A stretch of DNA of 64,000 nucleotides from Naegleria gruberi (taxonomy: Eukaryota), in assembly GCA_000004985.1 (NCBI GenBank), contig GG738873.1. The stretch is one strand, 5' to 3'. The translations under genes and the position numbers were made by a program. The notes under the pieces are model-generated. The model was given only the letters and a program-made list of their open reading frames with translations, did no database searches and was not told where the DNA came from. Below, piece after piece: positions 7,661 to 16,859 of this stretch. How positions within the stretch are numbered: the first letter of the stretch is position 1; the number at the start of each line of letters is the position of its first letter.

Positions 7661-10600
7661 TTACTCACTGTCATCCATTTCATCTTCTTTTTCCATAATA
7701 ACATCAAAAACATTATCCTCCTCATTCAATTTCTTCTTCCTCTTAATGAATTTTATATCCTTTCTCTCTCTGTGAACACGATAATTCGAATAATAGCCCG
7801 TACTATTCCTATTCTTCATCATCATGTTAGCAAAATAAATTAAATTTCCTTTAAAATAATAGGTTTTCAAGTCTGGATTTCTTTTATCACGTAGATACGC
7901 TCTGTATTTTCTTTCAAGTATGTCACTAGCTTCTTCGTATATTATTGTTGGAGTCTCATTCGATTCTGAGTAAGACCAAATATACTTGCATAATTGCTTT
8001 TTCAAGTGTTTTGGATTTGTATAGGCATCTTGAAAGAAATTTCTTGTATGTGGATGGAAACTTTCATTTGTGTGAATGAATAAATTGCAATATAACTTAC
8101 CTTCCAATTGATTGAGTTGTTGGATTAATGATAATCCATTCAATGTGAGATGCAAGGTTACTGATTGGATTTTTTGTATTCATAATATGTTCAATATCAT
8201 TCAATGAGAATTCAAAATATGTTTTTCTTTTGTTCTTTTTCTGATAGTCAGCAACTGTCTGAAGTTTACGGTAGTAATTGGAGGTTGAATTTGCTCGTAC
8301 AGGTACTTGTCTATAATCATGATCTTCAGAAGGGTCAATCATCTTCATTGTTTTCTCCAAATTGTTTTTACCTCCAATAGATTTAAATACAGCATTCCTT
8401 CTTCTATTATTCTTATAACCATGGATAGTTAGTAGAATTCTTGCTAGTCCAGTAACTTGCTTAATGTTTGCAATCTTCTTCTCCCTTGTTGTAGAGTGTC
8501 TTCTTGGGAAATACAAACTAATCCTATCATAAAGAACACTGTTAGCTAATTTCTTGTCATCGTACCCTGGACATCCTATTCTGAAGCCCCTTAAAGCATA
8601 CTTAACAAGCCTTAACTCAAAAGTTGTAGATTGACGATCAACATCAACCAAATTACATCTTGTAGAAAGAGCAACAACAGCTCTTGGTAAGCAGTAAAGT
8701 TGATTTCCATCAAATCTAATGACATTAAATTGAATTTTCACAACATGTAAAGAAACTTACCCAACACAACAGGTGGGAATGTCGAACCCCATAAGTACCT
8801 CTGCAGGTGATTTGTATAAACGAGTAATTACTTGTACTGCAGGCAAGTTATCAAAATTGAATGTAATGGCATGCTGAGTTCTTGTAATGACAATATTTCC
8901 ATCATTTAAATTCGTTTTGAACAGTTTGTAAAGATAGATTATTTTTTCTTCTGCTTGCTTTTCAGTAATGCCATAAAGAAACAAGTCGAGATCACTATTT
9001 TTCCACTGAGGTGATTTTCTATAGTAGGATTCAATATTAGAATATACTCTCTTTGGTGGTGGGGGCCTTGTACCCAAGTATGGTTCAGTTCTACTACTAT
9101 TAGTTTTAAAAGAGAACTCCTCATCTGAACTAGCTGTAAAATAATCTTCATCTATTTTTTCTGAATTACTGTCATCGCTAGACTCACAGTCATCAAAATC
9201 CCAATAGATTCTTTCTCTTGGTTTTGGCTGTGAAGCATCGAACCAATCAAGAGGAATCTCTAATAAACAAGCCAGAATGCCACCACCTAATTTGTCTATT
9301 ATGAGAAAAATTGAAGAAGAATGAATACATACCTGCAGCAAATACATTACTCCAATCCATATCCTTGAATAAATCTCCTGAAAAGACATTGAACTGAGAG
9401 AAGAAAACTTCTCTCGATTTGCAAACCTTAGGTATAGGTGGAGCTTGCAATCCAGAAAACTCATTCACCAACTCGGAACAATCAATAGGACTTTCAAAAT
9501 CAAACAAGAGAGGAACATTTGGTTCAGTTGGCTCAAACATTTTCCTGGAAATATTCTCGTTGGCAAATACGTTAATCATGTGAAGATAGGGATCATTTAA
9601 AATTGGATTTTCTCTATCAGAGACGAACATTCTCCTCAAGAAATCTTCTTCTTGCTTGATTTTCAAATTATTGGAACCTATATCTTCTACAGGAAATCTT
9701 AAGGGGTCCAAGAAATCGACCAAGGAGTGAATTTTAAATTCAATAGCTTCCTTGTAAATCAACTTTCGTTTAGCAGCATCTTTTGGAATATTGTGAGTTG
9801 TACCATATTGTAAATACTGGAAAATGTGGTGAAATATTTCACCATCTCTGTCAATAAATATTTCACTAGTAATATCTTTCAACTCGGTGAGAATTGATGG
9901 AAAGACACTATCCTTATGAATGAGTAATTTTTCCATGCTGATTGTAAATTTGGTTCCTCTAACATTGAAAATGATAGGAGTCTTTCTAAGTGTAGATTCT
10001 TTTTCTTTTAGAAGTTGATCTTCCCTATTCAATTCCTCCTTCTTTTGCTCTACATAATCTTCCAAGATTTTCTTTTCTTGAATGGTAATGTTTGCAAACT
10101 TGTTCAGCCATTTCTCATCTTGCTCATCTTGATCTGAGCTCATTACATTTCTAATTTCCTTTGTTGTAGTACCTTGTTTGACTACTCCTTCCTCCTCCAA
10201 CTTTTTCAATTCCTTTTGATATTGATTAATGAGTAAGGCAATTCTAGCGCTCAATTTACTAGTTCCAAAAAAGTCAGAATCTCTCAATAACTCTCTCAAA
10301 TGAATAAGTGCACTTTCAGATGCCTCCTCCCACAGACCCACGTAATTAGTAGATCCAGTCCTCAAATGCTCCAACAAGATGGGAAAATAATCAGGATTCA
10401 ACTCGTCCAATACAATAGCATCATGTTCACTCTCTCTATCAATTCCAACACCCGATGACAACATGGTCTTGAGCATATTCTCTCTCTTGTTAATGGTGGC
10501 AAGTGTGGTGATGAACAATTTTCCTCCGACCATCAATTTAATCACTACTTGATCACTATTTTCCAAAATTTCCTTCACAATCTTTTGATGGTGATCACCT

Positions 10601-10977
10601 TGATAGGATGAATCGTCATGTATGGTAGATTTAATTGATGATGACGAAGAATTTGAATTTAAATTATTATTATCACTATTATTATTAATATTGATGTTAG
10701 AAAACTTCTCCAACACTTCCAACTCTCTCCTCCTCAGTTCATTCCTCTCCCGTTCTCTCTCCAGTCCAATCAGTGCATCAATTCTAAACTTTTCCACTTG
10801 TTCCCTCTCCCGAATGTGTTTTGGTGTTTCAATTTCTTCATCATCAGCAGCGGATGATGCGAGTGAGAGCAAACTTTCTTTGGATGTTTCATTGGCGGGA
10901 AAATCTGTAAAGCGTTTTCTTTTGAGTGGTGTTTGTTCTTCTTCTTTAATGTTGGTATTGTTGTTACTGTTGATCAT
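7661..10977 (-). CDS. Protein with two BTB/T1 (KCTD-type) domains and a C-terminal domain of unknown function; 4 exons: 10977-9333, 9295-8761, 8715-8101, 8060-7661
   Basis: Two T1/BTB-like segments are seen (VIKLMVGGKLFITTLATINKRENMLKTML...DELNPDYFPILLEHLRTG and IIFNVRGTKFTISMEKLLIHKDSVFPSIL...FIDRDGEIFHHIFQYLQYG). Four track ORFs in different frames are joined by three short GTAAGT/GTATGT..AG introns of 37, 45 and 40 nt with exact phase continuity. The N-terminus has poly-N/S stretches. The C-terminal domain (..IPTCCVGFDGNQLYCLPRAVV..) was not recognised. Confidence 0.6.
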
Positions 10978-11405
10978 AGGATGGATTTCAAATATTGTGT
11001 TTTTGATTTTTTTTTGATTTGAAATTCTAATGGAAAGTGGAAGTCATTGATAATGTGTGAATTTTTGTAAAACCTAAAGTTTGGGAACAACAAAACTGTA
11101 GACGAAACTGTACTTTTGATATTCGAAATGCGGGTTGTATGGAGGAATTAAGGAATATTATTCGCATGAATCCTGAAATTATAACTGAGATTGTAATCAT
11201 TGAAAATTCACATTCAAATAGAAAACCATCCCACCAAAAACATGCCAAGATTTCCTTAGCACCATCAAAAATCAACATGAAATACCACAAACAAACTTGA
11301 TTATAATAAAGCACACACCATTACAATCATGCAGCTGTCAAACGTAATGACATTCGACATATCAGAAAGATCACTACTGGCAGGAAACCTCATCATTAAA
11401 AAAAA

Positions 11406-12177
11406 ATGTCCAAAACTTTAATCTCTCTCTTCCTCGTTATTGCTTTTGCTTTGGTTGTTGCATGCGTGGATGTTACTCCTGAAGAATTGAAAGCAATATT
11501 AACCAACGTCCCAAAGGCCAAGGTCACTAACTATGCTCAATACATGAATGATGCCATGGATGAAGGTGATATTGATACCTGTTGTGAAATTGCTGCTTTC
11601 ATTGCTCAAGTAGGTCATGAAAGTGGTGATTTGAATTGGTTTGTTGAATTTGCCTCTGGTTCTGCTTATGAAGGTAGAAAGGATTTGGGTAATACTGTCA
11701 AGGGTGATGGTGTTAGAGTAAGTGTTATCTTTTAACTGTTTGACTCTTTACACTCTATTCAATTATTATCAATATTATTAATGTATTATTAATCAATCGA
11801 ATAATAATATTATAGTATAAGGGTAGAGGTCCAATTCAAATTACTGGTCGTGCTAATTATCGTGCTGCTGGTAAGGCTTTGGGTGTTGATTTGGAAAATA
11901 ATCCACTCCTTGCTCAAGAACCAGTCATTGGTTTCAAGACTGCTGTTTGTAAGTTGTTTTTTCGCTAAATTTCAGTTTGTTGTAATATTAATATTAATAT
12001 CATTATTAATATCTCTCGTTTTAAATAGGGTTCTGGAATACTAGAAGTTTGAACAAGTATGCTGACTGTTCTCAAGCTAACTTTGATATCATTACCAAGA
12101 GAATCAATGGTGGTTTCAATGGTAAGGCTGACAGAGATGCCAAGTTTGCTAAGGCCAAGAAGGTTTTGAAGTGTTAA
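11406..12177 (+). CDS. Secreted glycoside hydrolase family 19-like lysozyme/chitinase; 3 exons: 11406-11717, 11816-11948, 12029-12177
   Basis: Exon 1 carries a signal peptide ([20 protein letters not shown]) and '[20 protein letters not shown]...YEGRKDLGN'. Exon 2 carries '[15 protein letters not shown]...GFKTAV'. Exon 3 carries 'WFWNTRS...INGGFNG'. These are the hallmark GH19 catalytic-core motifs. The introns are AT-rich GTAAGT..TAG, 98 and 80 nt, with the phase conserved. Confidence 0.7.
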
Positions 12178-12446
12178 ATAAATCATTTTTAATTCTTTCA
12201 AAATAATTGAAAATGCATATCTGTTTCACAAAATGCATTCCATTTCAATCAATTAGGAATTGGAGTTGCATTCTTAATCATAAATGCAAAAACAAACAGC
12301 ATGCATCCAGTTTGGTACATCACACTCTTAATAATTGAGAGTAATTAATCAAGAAGAAATGTTTAATGATGGAAGTAAGGTTCTGCAAACTTTCAATTAA
12401 TTTTTTTTAGTTTTGAAAAAAAGATTTAAAGGCGGGATTAAATAGT

Positions 12447-15400
12447 ATGCAAAAGGTTTTCAAGCGAGTTGAAAAATTCATCTCAACACCCCATTCCGAT
12501 GATGATCGCTCAATGGTGGATACGGTCACTGAGAAATTGTATGAAGAATTGAAAAAGTGTTTGGAAGTGGTGGCGAAAACAAATGGTGATGATGGATTAA
12601 AGTTTGTAAAATTAATGATAATTTCAATGATTGCTCATCAGAGTGGTGATGGAAATAATCAGAAGAATAATAATAGTAATGGAAGGAAGGAATTAATAGG
12701 GAATTTAATGACGGAATTTGTGAAGAATTGTTGTAGGATTGAATTGAGAAGTGTAGGTAAAACACTCTTATTTGATGTGATGATAATATTTGGTTGGTTA
12801 ATAATATTAATTGGAAAAGAGGATTGAAAATACATTTAGAAAATTAAATAATAATTGGGGAAATAATTCGAATGGGGAGAATCAAGAAAAAGTGGTGGGG
12901 AAATTATTGATGGATCGATTGAGTAGTCAATTGATTTTTAATTCGGCCAAGTTTCAGTCTTTGAATTTCTTATTGGATGAGTAAGTGAGTTGGAGTTTAA
13001 ATTTATTGACTTGCAAAGTTCCAATTATTTATTATCATTATATGTGTATTTTCAAAATTTAATAGAGACAGATGCGAGTGTAAATATAATTCCAAGAGAT
13101 TTGAAAAGTAGTTTTCAATTGTTGGAACAGTATTGTGAAAAATTTCACAATGCAGAACTGATTAATATATTGTACAAATTAAAAAAAATAGCTGAAGAAC
13201 AAGAGTTGATAGAGTATTCACATTTGACAATTATTGAAACAGCCAAGATGGAGTTAGAGTGGAAGGAAATGAATGACAGGAAATCATCCTCTCAGAGGAA
13301 AATGGAAATACTTTCATCCTTATTTTCCAATGTAAATAGTAATTATTCGGACGATTCATTTGAGGAATTATTTCAAACTTTTGAAAAGATATATAGACAA
13401 GCAATTAGAAAAATAACAAAGAGTCAACCCACGAAAATTAATGAAAATTTGAAAAAGGGAATACTGACATTTGATTTCATTCACAAAATGGCTCAACATT
13501 CCATTCCATTTATCTCGGTAAATCAAGGCGAACTAAATTTATCCAAAGCAGAGGTAAACCTAGAGTTTGAAGAAGAGGATGAGATCAATAATTCTGATTT
13601 TATGACCAATCTCGGTGATACAACTCTACAGGTGTTATCAAATATAGAATCATACGTTGGAACGTCATTTCTCAACTATGAGAAAATATCTCCTGCCATG
13701 AGTGCTCACTTAAAACACAAATTTCTTTCCCAAGTTAGTGAAGCTTTAAAATATGAAAAGGTCAACCCTACACTTGAAAAGACACTTCCCTCAATAAGAG
13801 AGAAAACAGTGAAGAAGATACAGGACTCATTCCATGTCGATCCAACACTGAGCTTTGTTTTTGGAACACCCTCGACCGACAAGGATGGCAAGTTAATTAC
13901 AAATAACAGTAGGAAAAATTTATTCTTAAAGAGAGACGATGTGAACACTTACTTGGAACTAGTGGACAATACCTTTATACAGGAGAATTACTATTCTATT
14001 GAAAATGATTCGATTATTGGAGAAAGCAGTAAGGAAGATTTGCTTGATTGTTGGAGAGCCGAATTCAAAACACGGCAACTCCATAGTATACCAGCAATCC
14101 AAATGAAAGACGTACTCTTCACTTCCTCCTTATTTATGGATCCTTTGAATATTGAAATGCTCATATCCTCGAACCTTGAACCAAAAAATCCAATTCTCCA
14201 ATTAATTCAAGCTCAAAGTATATCAACACATGAGGATTACATTGGAAAATTGAAAGGATTATTCAAATATAACAACTTACAGTGGATGGGAACATATCAT
14301 TCACAGTGCCTACGTGATTTTTTTGGAACTGACTTGATTGATGTTACTAATGTGAATAATGCACGATCTCTCAGCATGTCCATAGATTTGGATAATCTCT
14401 CAAGTATTGCATACTCATTTCTCAAAATCTCTGAAAATCACCGTAGCTTGTGCAATCAGGTATTTGAAGAAAATAATTCGAGCGCTCTATGGAGAGACTT
14501 TTACCTTGATAATTACCAAGTTCTAAACCCTATGAAAGATCTATCAGAATCCATTCTAGAAAATAGTATCCAGCACACAACTTCATTGAGAATTTTAAAA
14601 GAGATTGGAACCCACCAAAGTAATAATGAAGTGAGCAGTAATTGTGATTGGATTTCTCTAATGAAGTCTATAGCCAACAAACTCCATTTTAACAAATCTA
14701 TATTCTGTAACTTTGTGGATGAATTGGATAAAGCAACAGTGAAGTCTAATTTTTTGGAATTATCATCAATAATAATGAAATTCTATTACTCAATTCATCA
14801 AGTAATGACAGAATTAGTTGAGATTTTGCAAACACAATCCATAAGCGAATTATTCATTGTTTTATTGTTAATATCCTCCATTGGAAACAAAACATACTCT
14901 ATTATTGATTTCAGCTTTTCTAATGCGCTGAAATCTCGATATTTTCATACTCGGTTTGTTGAATTGATACTGCATCTGCTGCACCAACAAGATGATGAGT
15001 GCAAATTCCAATCAATAGCTAAGGACATTCAAATGTTATCATTTCTGAATGTATGCTTGATTGGATTTAGAGATGGTCTCTTCCTTTCCAAGATTAAAAT
15101 TGCTAGAGCCATTTCTATGGAACTAATTTCCAATACTCAATCAATCAATAGATCATATTTAGAATCTCCAATTTTAAATATTTGCAAAATACGAATAGGA
15201 AATAATTACATGCTCTCAAATAGAACCACTGCAAGGTTACTAGTTTATAATCACTTGAAAATTGTGAATGAAAAGTCAAAAGAAATGAAATCCATTGAAG
15301 ACAAACTACTTTTGGAAAATATGTTTGTGGAAAGCAAAACTCATGAATCTAAAACTACGAAAAGCGACAAGAACACTTTAAAAGGCGTAAATTTGATATC

Positions 15401-16859
15401 CATCAAGGATCAACAAGTTGTGAAAAACTCTTACAAATTTTTGGATGATCAGCTTAAAGAAATTATTCATGAAATGCGACCAAAATCACAAAAAAGTCAC
15501 CAACCGATTCTAAATGATGAGAAGGATGACTTTGAAGACATTCTGGATAGTTTATCATCAGTTTGTGAAGTTATTATTGTACCCTCTGAAGATTCTGAGA
15601 CTCTGACACGCTCTCCATCAAAAGTGAAGAAAATGCTATTGGAATCATTGCCCTCATTACTTTTTGAGATGTTACACACTTTTCCAGACTCTGTAAATCA
15701 TTGGCTTTCCTTCATTGTGCAACAGACCATGTCATTTCTTAAAACTTTAGAGTGTTGTCAAATAATTTCACTCAAATTCAAAATTCATGGAGAAAAGTCT
15801 GTACAATTAACCAGTAGAAAGGTTAGCTTTGTGGACATTTCCATGTTCTTGGCCATGCAATGCGCAAACGCTTTATTTCAAACCATACGGAAGAATATTG
15901 AACCTTTTAGCAAGATTTTATTCGAAATGTGCCTCATTGTCGAAAACTTTCTCATTCCAGATAATGAAGCCAACAATGCCTCCCAAAACATTCAATCCTT
16001 GAAGGCCAAACTAGAGAAATACGCTCTCACAATCCAAGAAATACTGAAACCAGACTCTCATTACATAATTCAATCAATAAGAAATCAAGTTGGTCAAGAA
16101 GAATTCATTGATATTATCAATCATTTACAAGTGGAAAATGAGGAAGGCCTTTCCCAAATATTGGAACATGAAATATTATCCTTCACCAAACAACACATTA
16201 TACAGGAACGTTTATTGGACTATCACTTGTGTATGAATCAATTTTATGGAGAATATTTGGAAAATATGATTCCTCTTGGTGAAACTATAGAGTATTTGAA
16301 ACTTTCAATATACGAAACAAATATTCCAATGCCAAATCGTCATTATTGGAGAGAACAGCTCTTTTTGAGTTTGGATTTTGAAGAGTACGCAGAAATACTC
16401 CAACAAGTACTTGATAGCTGTCCTAAGGATTTGGATGAGAATGCAGAATCGAGTACATTAATTCTACTCCAACAATTAATTCTCGTGTTGGGTAATTATC
16501 CATTTCACAAGCTACTCACATCTACTGAGAATGATAGTATTCCCTATCTTCATCCGATTATTCATTCGTCAGTGATATCAAAAATTGCCTCTGATCCTCT
16601 CATTCAACAAGAAATTACAAACATGAAACCTTCACTCAAAGTATTGGTGGGAAAGTTATTTGATGCCTTGATTAGAAAGTGTTGTCAAGCCAAAATGGAA
16701 TTCAACATGAACTATATCAAATCTGTCAAGCACGAATTAATCAAATCCTTACATGAATCACACAATTTAGCTGAAAACTATCGTGCATCCAATATGGTTC
16801 TATCAGATAAGTTACACAATTTTCTAATTAAAAACTATTCAAGAGGAGGAGAGGAATAA
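12447..16859 (+). CDS. Large hypothetical protein; predicted exons 12447-12752, 12820-12980, 13019-16859
   Basis: The 1289-codon ORF 12990..16859 has no recognisable domain. Upstream ORF 12447..12827 and an open intermediate frame (KLNNNWGNNSNGENQEKVVGKLLMDRLSSQLIFNSAKFQSLNFLLD) can be joined through two phase-consistent introns: GTAGGT..AAAAG (67 nt) and GTAAGT..AAAG (38 nt). The 5' exon assignment is an inference. Confidence 0.45.

Follow-up and report, generated by a model that had tools for sequence, protein, structure and literature searches.

A 64,000-nucleotide stretch of the Naegleria gruberi genome (contig GG738873.1 of assembly GCA_000004985.1; hereafter the window) carries a gene for a GH19 protein on the plus strand at positions 11406-12177. 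Sequence and modelled structure assign the product, D2VI28, to the endolysin (ELYS) branch of GH19 and not to the plant-type chitinase branch. The gene is intron-bearing, lies in a eukaryotic context and is under purifying selection. The protein has an N-terminal signal peptide and the complete set of catalytic residues. We put at roughly two chances in three the reading that D2VI28 is a laterally acquired, endolysin-type muramidase of about 19 kDa in its mature form, which is secreted or delivered to the phagosome and helps a bacterivore to kill or digest its prey. In this reading, we infer the substrate, the destination and the role.

The proposed history starts with an ancestor of Naegleria, probably of Naegleria and Willaertia, which would have taken the gene from a bacterium or a phage. 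The acquired gene may then have gained a signal peptide, four cysteines, probably forming two disulfides, and, in Naegleria, introns. Duplication would have yielded a small family, with some members bearing an N-terminal bacterial SH3b wall-binding domain. The signal peptide would direct the protein into the endoplasmic reticulum and on to the secretory or endolysosomal pathway. The mature domain is predicted to bind a peptidoglycan glycan strand in the GH19 cleft. Cleavage of the beta-1,4 bond between N-acetylmuramic acid and N-acetylglucosamine would follow the inverting GH19 mechanism, with E72 as acid, E81 as base and T114 positioning the water. The hydrolysis would aid the bacterivorous amoeba in killing or digesting bacteria.

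Gene model, fold and active site

The gene runs from the ATG to a TAA stop codon. The exons total 594 nt, that is, 197 codons and the stop. The spliced product is residue for residue the deposited protein EFC43444.1 (XP_002676188.1; UniProt D2VI28; NAEGRDRAFT_68539 of N. gruberi NEG-M), which is annotated as 'predicted protein'. The original prediction, made from the DNA letters alone, had proposed two introns and three exons between the same two positions; this gene model is correct and equals the public one. A tblastn search of the 64-kb window with the protein found no second copy beside the gene itself. The features are as follows.

11406-11717, plus strand: exon 1, codons 1-104, with an 11-residue helix motif, the general acid E72 (11619-11621) and the general base E81 (11646-11648)
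11406-11465, plus strand: predicted signal peptide, codons 1-20, indicated by hydrophobicity, the start of the alignment with phage homologues and a drop in the predicted local distance difference test score (pLDDT)
11580-11585, plus strand: codons of C59 and C60
11718-11815, plus strand: intron 1, 98 nt, phase 0, between R104 and Y105, GTAAGT..TATAG, GC content 0.19
11816-11948, plus strand: exon 2, codon 105 to the first base of codon 150, with the water-positioning T114 (11843-11845)
11949-12028, plus strand: intron 2, 80 nt, phase 1, inside the W150 codon (T/GG), GTAAGT..AATAG, GC content 0.21
12029-12177, plus strand: exon 3, remainder of codon 150 to codon 197 and the TAA stop, with WFWNT, RINGG, C162 and the C-terminal C197
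12066-12068, plus strand: codon of C162
12171-12173, plus strand: codon of C197

The GH19 motifs on which the prediction was based are all present and distributed over the three exons as described. QVGHESG is located in exon 1, a 15-residue motif stretch with T114 in exon 2 and INGG in exon 3, while GFKTAV-WFWNT straddles intron 2. The exons have a GC content of 0.39-0.41 versus 0.19 and 0.21 for the introns. The window is AT-rich (GC content 0.30-0.38).

Profile, sequence and structure searches agree on the GH19 membership. The Pfam profile PF00182 (Glyco_hydro_19) matches with E=3.4e-20 and 73.3 bits, against a gathering cut-off of 25.5, and covers residues 53-158 only. The endolysin profile PHROG 181 matches residues 20-195 with E=2.8e-56 and 193 bits. 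The NCBIfam profile search of the protein gave no match. The best sequence matches in the PDB are mostly endolysins: 9ms7 (8e-35; 43% identity over the mature domain), 9eoi, 9ms6 and 4ok7. Four endolysins or lytic enzymes are among the top five, together with 9hnv in third place, deposited as an N-acetylmuramoyl-L-alanine amidase. The first chitinase-type entry ranks sixth or later.

The AlphaFold model has a pLDDT of 93.7 overall, with about 59 for residues 1-20 and more than 96 for the remainder. The model and its Foldseek matches show the bilobal, alpha-helical, lysozyme-like GH19 fold. The top five PDB structures in the Foldseek search are all GH19 endolysins: 9ms7 (template modelling (TM) score 0.91, root-mean-square deviation 1.7 A, 43% identity), 9eoi, 4ok7, 8p8e and 9ms6. 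Chitinases rank below them, with TM scores of 0.5-0.7. The 50 PDB matches with E at or below 1e-3 comprise GH19 endolysins, GH19 chitinases and chitinase-like proteins as well as the type VI secretion system effector TseP (8xcl) and a putative bacteriophage protein (7r6s).

The subfamilies of GH19 were defined by the GH19 Engineering Database (GH19ED; PMC8547705). The catalytic residues of the reference endolysin are E49, E58 and T130. The two glutamates are 9 positions apart in endolysins versus 22 in chitinases (E67...E89). I33, R109, G118 and L/Y173 are endolysin-specific positions, of which three of four are enough for characterised members. A disulfide in loop 3, Cys97-Cys105, is typical of the chitinase subfamily (CHIT), with the cysteines present in 93% and 91% of its sequences. 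In D2VI28, E72, E81 and T114 are the equivalents of the catalytic residues. They are invariant or nearly so in the alignments, and both glutamates that the original prediction expected there are present. The spacing from E72 to E81 is 9, as in endolysins, and not about 22. All four endolysin-specific positions are occupied accordingly (I56, R91, G102 and L157); I33, G118 and M/L173 were mapped by a HMMER alignment to 4ok7, while the assignment of R91 to R109 rests on a Y-x-x-R motif common to 9ms7, 9eoi and 9ms6, and the local HMMER alignment to 4ok7 gives D93 at this position. No cysteine is located between Y88 (CHIT Y96) and G107 (CHIT G113), and the chitinase loop 3 is absent.

Homologues were collected and aligned as the 120 best matches, all at least 52% identical to D2VI28. 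Glu, Glu and Thr are retained in 117 of the 120 aligned relatives. A paralogue in Naegleria lovaniensis (P0004, C9374_001808) has a cysteine in the T114 column, giving the pattern E-E-C, and two metagenome relatives show the patterns E-E-N and A-E-T. Altered or lost activity is possible for these variants.

The mature domain is preceded by a signal peptide, in agreement with the original prediction. Residues 1-20 look like a typical n-region with a hydrophobic core: an uncharged, hydrophobic stretch of 18 residues follows K3, and the highest Kyte-Doolittle mean over 12 residues is 3.3. The segment is absent from the bacterial and phage homologues (174-176 amino acids), which begin at the equivalent of residue 21, and 9ms7 aligns from residue 21. 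Cleavage would occur after A19 or C20. A hydrophobic N-terminus is present in all eight named heterolobosean copies.

Substrate and role

A muramidase activity is suggested by SH3b domains on paralogues in N. lovaniensis and Willaertia magna and by the annotation of phage homologues as endolysins. The strongest external support comes from Trichomonas. Its laterally acquired GH19 enzymes, with or without SH3b, are muramidases and not chitinases according to high-performance liquid chromatography and mass spectrometry, and they are induced by Escherichia coli (PMC12612818).

Several points speak against a muramidase, including the motif-based mapping of R91. Substrate specificity in GH19 is not reliably readable from sequence. 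It overlaps between the subfamilies: one characterised enzyme of the endolysin subfamily takes chitin, and several chitinases take murein (PMC8547705). An SH3b domain is missing from D2VI28 itself; for the SH3b-less class of Trichomonas, activity on chitin has been raised as a speculation by the authors of that study (PMC12612818). Data on the activity, expression or localisation of D2VI28 were not found in the literature. A chitin-binding type-1 domain is present in a rotifer protein that shares a 90%-identity cluster with a close relative.

The substrate overlap, the missing SH3b domain and the rotifer fusion would also suit a true chitinase, used for cyst-wall remodelling at excystment or for the digestion of fungal or arthropod material. 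Chitin probes reportedly bind to the cyst walls of Naegleria; a literature search on chitin in these walls turned up nothing usable. The name of PF00182 is 'Chitinase class I'. In a 2026 paper, the gene appears as a 'GH19 chitinase' whose catalytic residues are conserved and whose origin is possibly lateral (PMC13231604). A chitinase is nevertheless unlikely. D2VI28 has the endolysin-specific residues at four of four positions and the short Glu-Glu spacing, it lacks the Cys97/Cys105 pair and loop 3, and the nearest structures are those of endolysins. Neither CBM18 nor CBM5/12 nor any other chitin-binding module was found in any heterolobosean copy; the sole accessory domain is SH3b, a peptidoglycan-binding type. 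The laterally acquired eukaryotic GH19 enzymes that have been assayed are without chitinase activity (PMC12612818). The designation 'lysozyme/chitinase' in the original prediction can be narrowed: GH19 holds and the endolysin-type, muramidase subfamily is indicated.

The same biochemistry could serve antibacterial defence or symbiont control, with the enzyme secreted against competing, invading or intracellular bacteria. The signal peptide and the evidence for a muramidase apply equally to this role. The mature protein is basic (isoelectric point 8.3), as are many antibacterial lysozymes. The Trichomonas GH19 enzymes are read as microbiota-targeting tools (PMC12612818), and other laterally acquired wall hydrolases of eukaryotes are reported to serve immunity. 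N. gruberi is bacterivorous, so digestion is the simpler role. The present evidence fits both roles; we consider defence improbable and retain the digestive muramidase as the preferred reading.

If D2VI28 is a muramidase, the catalytic domain with which phages burst bacteria is also used by a free-living, bacterivorous amoeba to digest or kill its prey. This would be a second, probably independent, protist domestication of GH19 wall hydrolases after Trichomonas. The 'chitinase' label on four N. gruberi GH19 genes would be corrected, and the GH19 endolysin subfamily would extend into eukaryotes. A small, secretion-competent, endolysin-type enzyme with predicted stabilising disulfides is also a possible start for enzybiotic engineering. 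No major concept is altered. Eukaryotes are well known to have captured lysozymes laterally, and the Naegleria gene is a fairly ordinary case.

Native status, intron history and origin

The gene is native and has been under selection since before Naegleria speciation, because an intron position is shared, the ratio of nonsynonymous to synonymous substitution rates (dN/dS) is 0.16 and the exons are near-invariant between strains. The N. lovaniensis orthologue is 75% identical to D2VI28, and the pair has 99.5% bootstrap support in a neighbour-joining tree. The dN/dS of this pair is 0.155 in the mature domain, with dS saturated at about 1.5. Intron 1 lies between GDGxR and YKGRG in phase 0, and three of the four N. 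lovaniensis paralogues have an intron at exactly this position and in this phase. No counterpart of intron 2 was found in either N. lovaniensis or Willaertia. Each of the four N. lovaniensis homologues (L002, L004 and L005) bears two or three introns, at five distinct positions overall:

between SAFL and AQLAHE, phase 1: three genes
between GDGxR and YKGRG, phase 0: three genes
between LG[IV]D and LEN, phase 2: two genes
between EGRK and DLGN, phase 0: one gene
between EGRR and DLGN, phase 1: one gene

The three GH19 genes of W. magna are intronless (L003, 4001-4600; L006, 3001-3924; L007, 3001-3660). This pattern suggests either a gain of introns in the Naegleria lineage after the transfer or a loss in Willaertia.

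The strain comparison is provided by an environmental metagenome contig (L001; ENA ERZ929261, run ERR1078381, PRJEB11402), which is 94.4% identical over 1.5 kb to positions 11057-12573 of the window. It derives from a wild amoeba within the N. gruberi species complex. The exons differ by one substitution in 594 nt, which changes E26 to D, and have no indels. Introns and flanks differ by 38 substitutions in about 890 aligned nt and by 62 gap columns. The introns of the contig have 94 and 59 nt, compared with 98 and 80 nt in the window, and retain GT..AG. Together with the deposited model and the shared position of intron 1, the confinement of indels to introns and flanks confirms that the introns are real.

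The genomic surroundings are those of the amoeba, as the original prediction had concluded from the AT-rich introns. Six long open reading frames (ORFs) of the window are exact deposited proteins of N. gruberi NEG-M (EFC43518-43523, EFC43449, EFC43452) on one scaffold of 461,873 bp. The flanking genes are eukaryotic, with a BTB_2 protein at 9247-10977 on the minus strand and a P4-ATPase fragment upstream. An assembly contamination by bacterial or phage DNA, or a decaying pseudogene left by a transfer, would fit the nearest non-eukaryotic relatives, which are bacterial and viral sequences of about 60% identity, and the otherwise phage-typical family, but has next to no probability: the two spliceosomal introns have canonical sites and restore the reading frame, the neighbours are N. 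gruberi proteins, orthologues and paralogues lie in a eukaryotic context in N. lovaniensis and W. magna, paralogues have an intron position in common, the dN/dS is low, the catalytic residues are all intact, and variation between strains is found in introns and flanks but hardly at all in the exons. Contamination and pseudogene were both excluded on these grounds.

The BTB_2 gene upstream of the GH19 gene is a 576-amino-acid ORF, rich in Asn and Ser and KCTD-like. The protein collection has no exact copy of this ORF, and hence the model on deposit is probably a different one. Two downstream ORFs on the plus strand, at 12447-12827 (126 amino acids) and 12990-16859 (1,289 amino acids), have no Pfam match and may be exons of a single gene.

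A bacterial or phage ancestry fits the homologues; the original prediction had named an ancient horizontal transfer as a candidate. Among the 120 best matches, the closest named non-eukaryotic relatives are myxobacteria and Blastocatellia (Acidobacteria) with 57-62% identity. A 44-kb viral contig of IMG/VR (L056, UViG_3300043184_000101) has a copy with 62% identity. Homologues occur in 1,652 cultured-phage records, with up to about 51% identity; an example is the endolysin of Myxococcus phage Mx1, and most are annotated as endolysin. The donor may have been either a bacterium or a phage. In the neighbourhood of the GH19 gene on the viral contig, PHROG matched nothing other than GH19 itself, and no lysis cassette was seen. 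The viral contig and a metagenome-assembled genome labelled 'uncultured Clostridia' (L008) are the two closest loci on the prokaryote side. They have the same gene order around the GH19 gene, with ORFs of about 570 and 322 amino acids, a small ORF, and ORFs of about 175, 268 and 144 amino acids, and no neighbour matches a PHROG family. The locus resembles a phage, or a phage-like element, that has yet to be characterised. A binning artefact may account for the Clostridia label.

A single transfer before the split of Naegleria and Willaertia is the simplest reading of the sequences and fits the shared SH3b architecture. In the neighbour-joining tree with 200 bootstraps, the eight named heterolobosean sequences form one clade, at a weak support of 31%. 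No protein of Naegleria fowleri is among the 120 best matches. In N. lovaniensis, its sister species, four copies are present, and each of them forms a 90% cluster of its own. The family may have been lost in N. fowleri, or the genes may be unannotated. The literature on an N. fowleri 'lysozyme' concerns an unrelated i-type lysozyme.

Eukaryotic relatives and comparison with known systems

D2VI28 has cysteines at positions 20, 59, 60, 162 and 197 only, and the last four belong to the mature protein. The bacterial and viral relatives examined have no cysteine in the mature domain. Cys59 and Cys197 occur together in 38 of the 120 aligned sequences and singly in 2, and both are missing in 80; these counts ignore kinship. 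The 38 sequences are all eukaryotic or eukaryote-like. Among them are those of Naegleria, Willaertia and bdelloid rotifers, one from a ciliate transcriptome and many metagenome proteins whose signal peptides resemble eukaryotic ones. In the neighbour-joining tree, 33 of them fall into one cluster with a support of about 1%. The joint presence of C60 and C162 is restricted to the eight heterolobosean sequences. The four cysteines probably form two disulfides, which would have been gained for life in the secretory pathway.

Among the 120 best matches, all 12 SH3b-bearing proteins belong to the Cys59/Cys197 set, and all 26 proteins with LysM or PG_binding_1 are without these cysteines. SH3b-GH19 forms are encoded by N. 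lovaniensis, in two genes in tandem, and by W. magna. N. gruberi reportedly also has such a form among its four GH19 genes (PMC13231604).

Relatives in bdelloid rotifers (Rotaria, Adineta and Didymodactylos; cluster of P0074) are 53-56% identical and have the cysteine pair. The Rotaria sordida protein P0137 (256 amino acids) is named 'Chitin-binding type-1 domain-containing protein' and would be a fusion of GH19 with a CBM18-like domain. This fusion hints at another substrate in rotifers.

Four long metagenome contigs with the cysteine pair (L101 and L102 of JGI 3300062347; L103 and L104 of JGI 3300062135) are eukaryotic and gene-dense. Neighbouring genes include Arf, RGS, GRIM-19, UCH, NPC1_N and RWP-RK as well as split HSP70 and Pyr_redox genes. 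The best full-length named matches of the Arf protein are from Acrasis (70%), Willaertia (68-72%) and Naegleria (67-68%); Arf is highly conserved, so this placement is not firm. The contigs probably originate from unsequenced soil heteroloboseans.

Together, these sequences may outline a clade of endolysin-type GH19 lysozymes that is largely eukaryotic and has gone unrecognised, a proposal that we make tentatively and at slightly less than even odds. Its members would be marked by a co-occurring pair Cys59/Cys197, by a second pair Cys60/Cys162 in Heterolobosea, by eukaryotic signal peptides and, in about one third, by SH3b instead of LysM or PG_binding_1. The clade would span Heterolobosea, bdelloid rotifers, a ciliate and several soil protists, and its proteins would be digestive lysozymes of bacterivorous eukaryotes derived from phage lysis enzymes. 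If true, it contradicts two published claims, namely that the ELYS subfamily is limited to phages and their hosts (PMC8547705) and that SH3b-GH19 fusions are unique to Trichomonas (PMC12612818).

The gene itself is not new. It has been public since the N. gruberi genome release and is named in the 2026 paper. Identifiers of D2VI28 were not found in the main texts of papers; the listing is in the supplement of PMC13231604, which groups the Naegleria GH19 proteins with those of Diplonema papillatum. A protist with a laterally acquired GH19 muramidase is already established in Trichomonas. New here are a placement within the endolysin subfamily, at odds both with the label 'chitinase' and with the published confinement of ELYS, the intron history, the eukaryote-associated cysteine pairs and SH3b-GH19 proteins beyond Trichomonas.

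GH19 chitinases of plants and Streptomyces (4j0l, 2baa, 1wvu) belong to the same family and have the same bilobal fold. A core of 26 positions is common to both, including the glutamate pair and the Ser/Thr. In contrast to the endolysins, they share only 22-31% identity with the Naegleria protein at TM scores of 0.5-0.7. Their glutamates are 22 and not 9 positions apart, and the chitinase disulfide, loop 3 and a chitin-binding module are all missing in Naegleria.

The phage GH19 endolysins, such as 9ms7 ('PWe2' from a soil metagenome), 9eoi (Pseudomonas aeruginosa) and 4ok7 (Salmonella phage SPN1S), have the same fold, catalytic triad, subfamily residues and size (about 175-180 amino acids). 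D2VI28 would work like the catalytic domain of a phage endolysin but is not one in the functional sense, which means an enzyme of a phage or prophage that acts inside the host when an infection ends. It is encoded by a nuclear gene with two introns among N. gruberi neighbours, and its signal peptide is of the cleavable type. A role inside the cell, as one component of a holin-endolysin lysis cassette, is therefore excluded. The three-helix peptidoglycan-binding insertion of SPN1S is absent, with only 7 residues from E81 to Y88. The four cysteines of the Naegleria protein are extra in comparison to phage and bacterial relatives alike.

Secreted GH19 proteins of soil and predatory bacteria (Cystobacter, Corallococcus, Hyalangium, Archangium; Blastocatellia) have the same catalytic core and are 57-62% identical over about 88% of the query. 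They are intronless and lack Cys59 and Cys197. Among the 120 best matches, they carry LysM or PG_binding_1 and never SH3b. GH25 muramidases (TvGH25) and the NlpC/P60 proteins of Trichomonas follow the same logic, a captured bacterial or phage wall hydrolase with a signal peptide used on bacteria. Their folds and catalytic mechanisms are unrelated to those of GH19.

The closest parallel is provided by the GH19 muramidases of Trichomonas, with class A and the SH3b-bearing class B (Mol Biol Evol 2025, PMC12612818). Trichomonas belongs to Metamonada and Naegleria to Heterolobosea, a different supergroup. The two acquisitions were probably independent, because no Trichomonas protein is among the 120 best matches. 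The Naegleria genes have introns, unlike those of Trichomonas, and the long forms of Naegleria and Willaertia have one SH3b match versus two in tandem. The Trichomonas enzymes are known from biochemistry, the Naegleria enzyme from its sequence. Both are eukaryotic nuclear genes of prokaryotic origin, and both proteins have a signal peptide and the two conserved catalytic glutamates. Trichomonas and Naegleria/Willaertia each combine a short, catalytic-only form with a longer form bearing SH3b at the N-terminus, and both Trichomonas and Naegleria are protists that eat bacteria.

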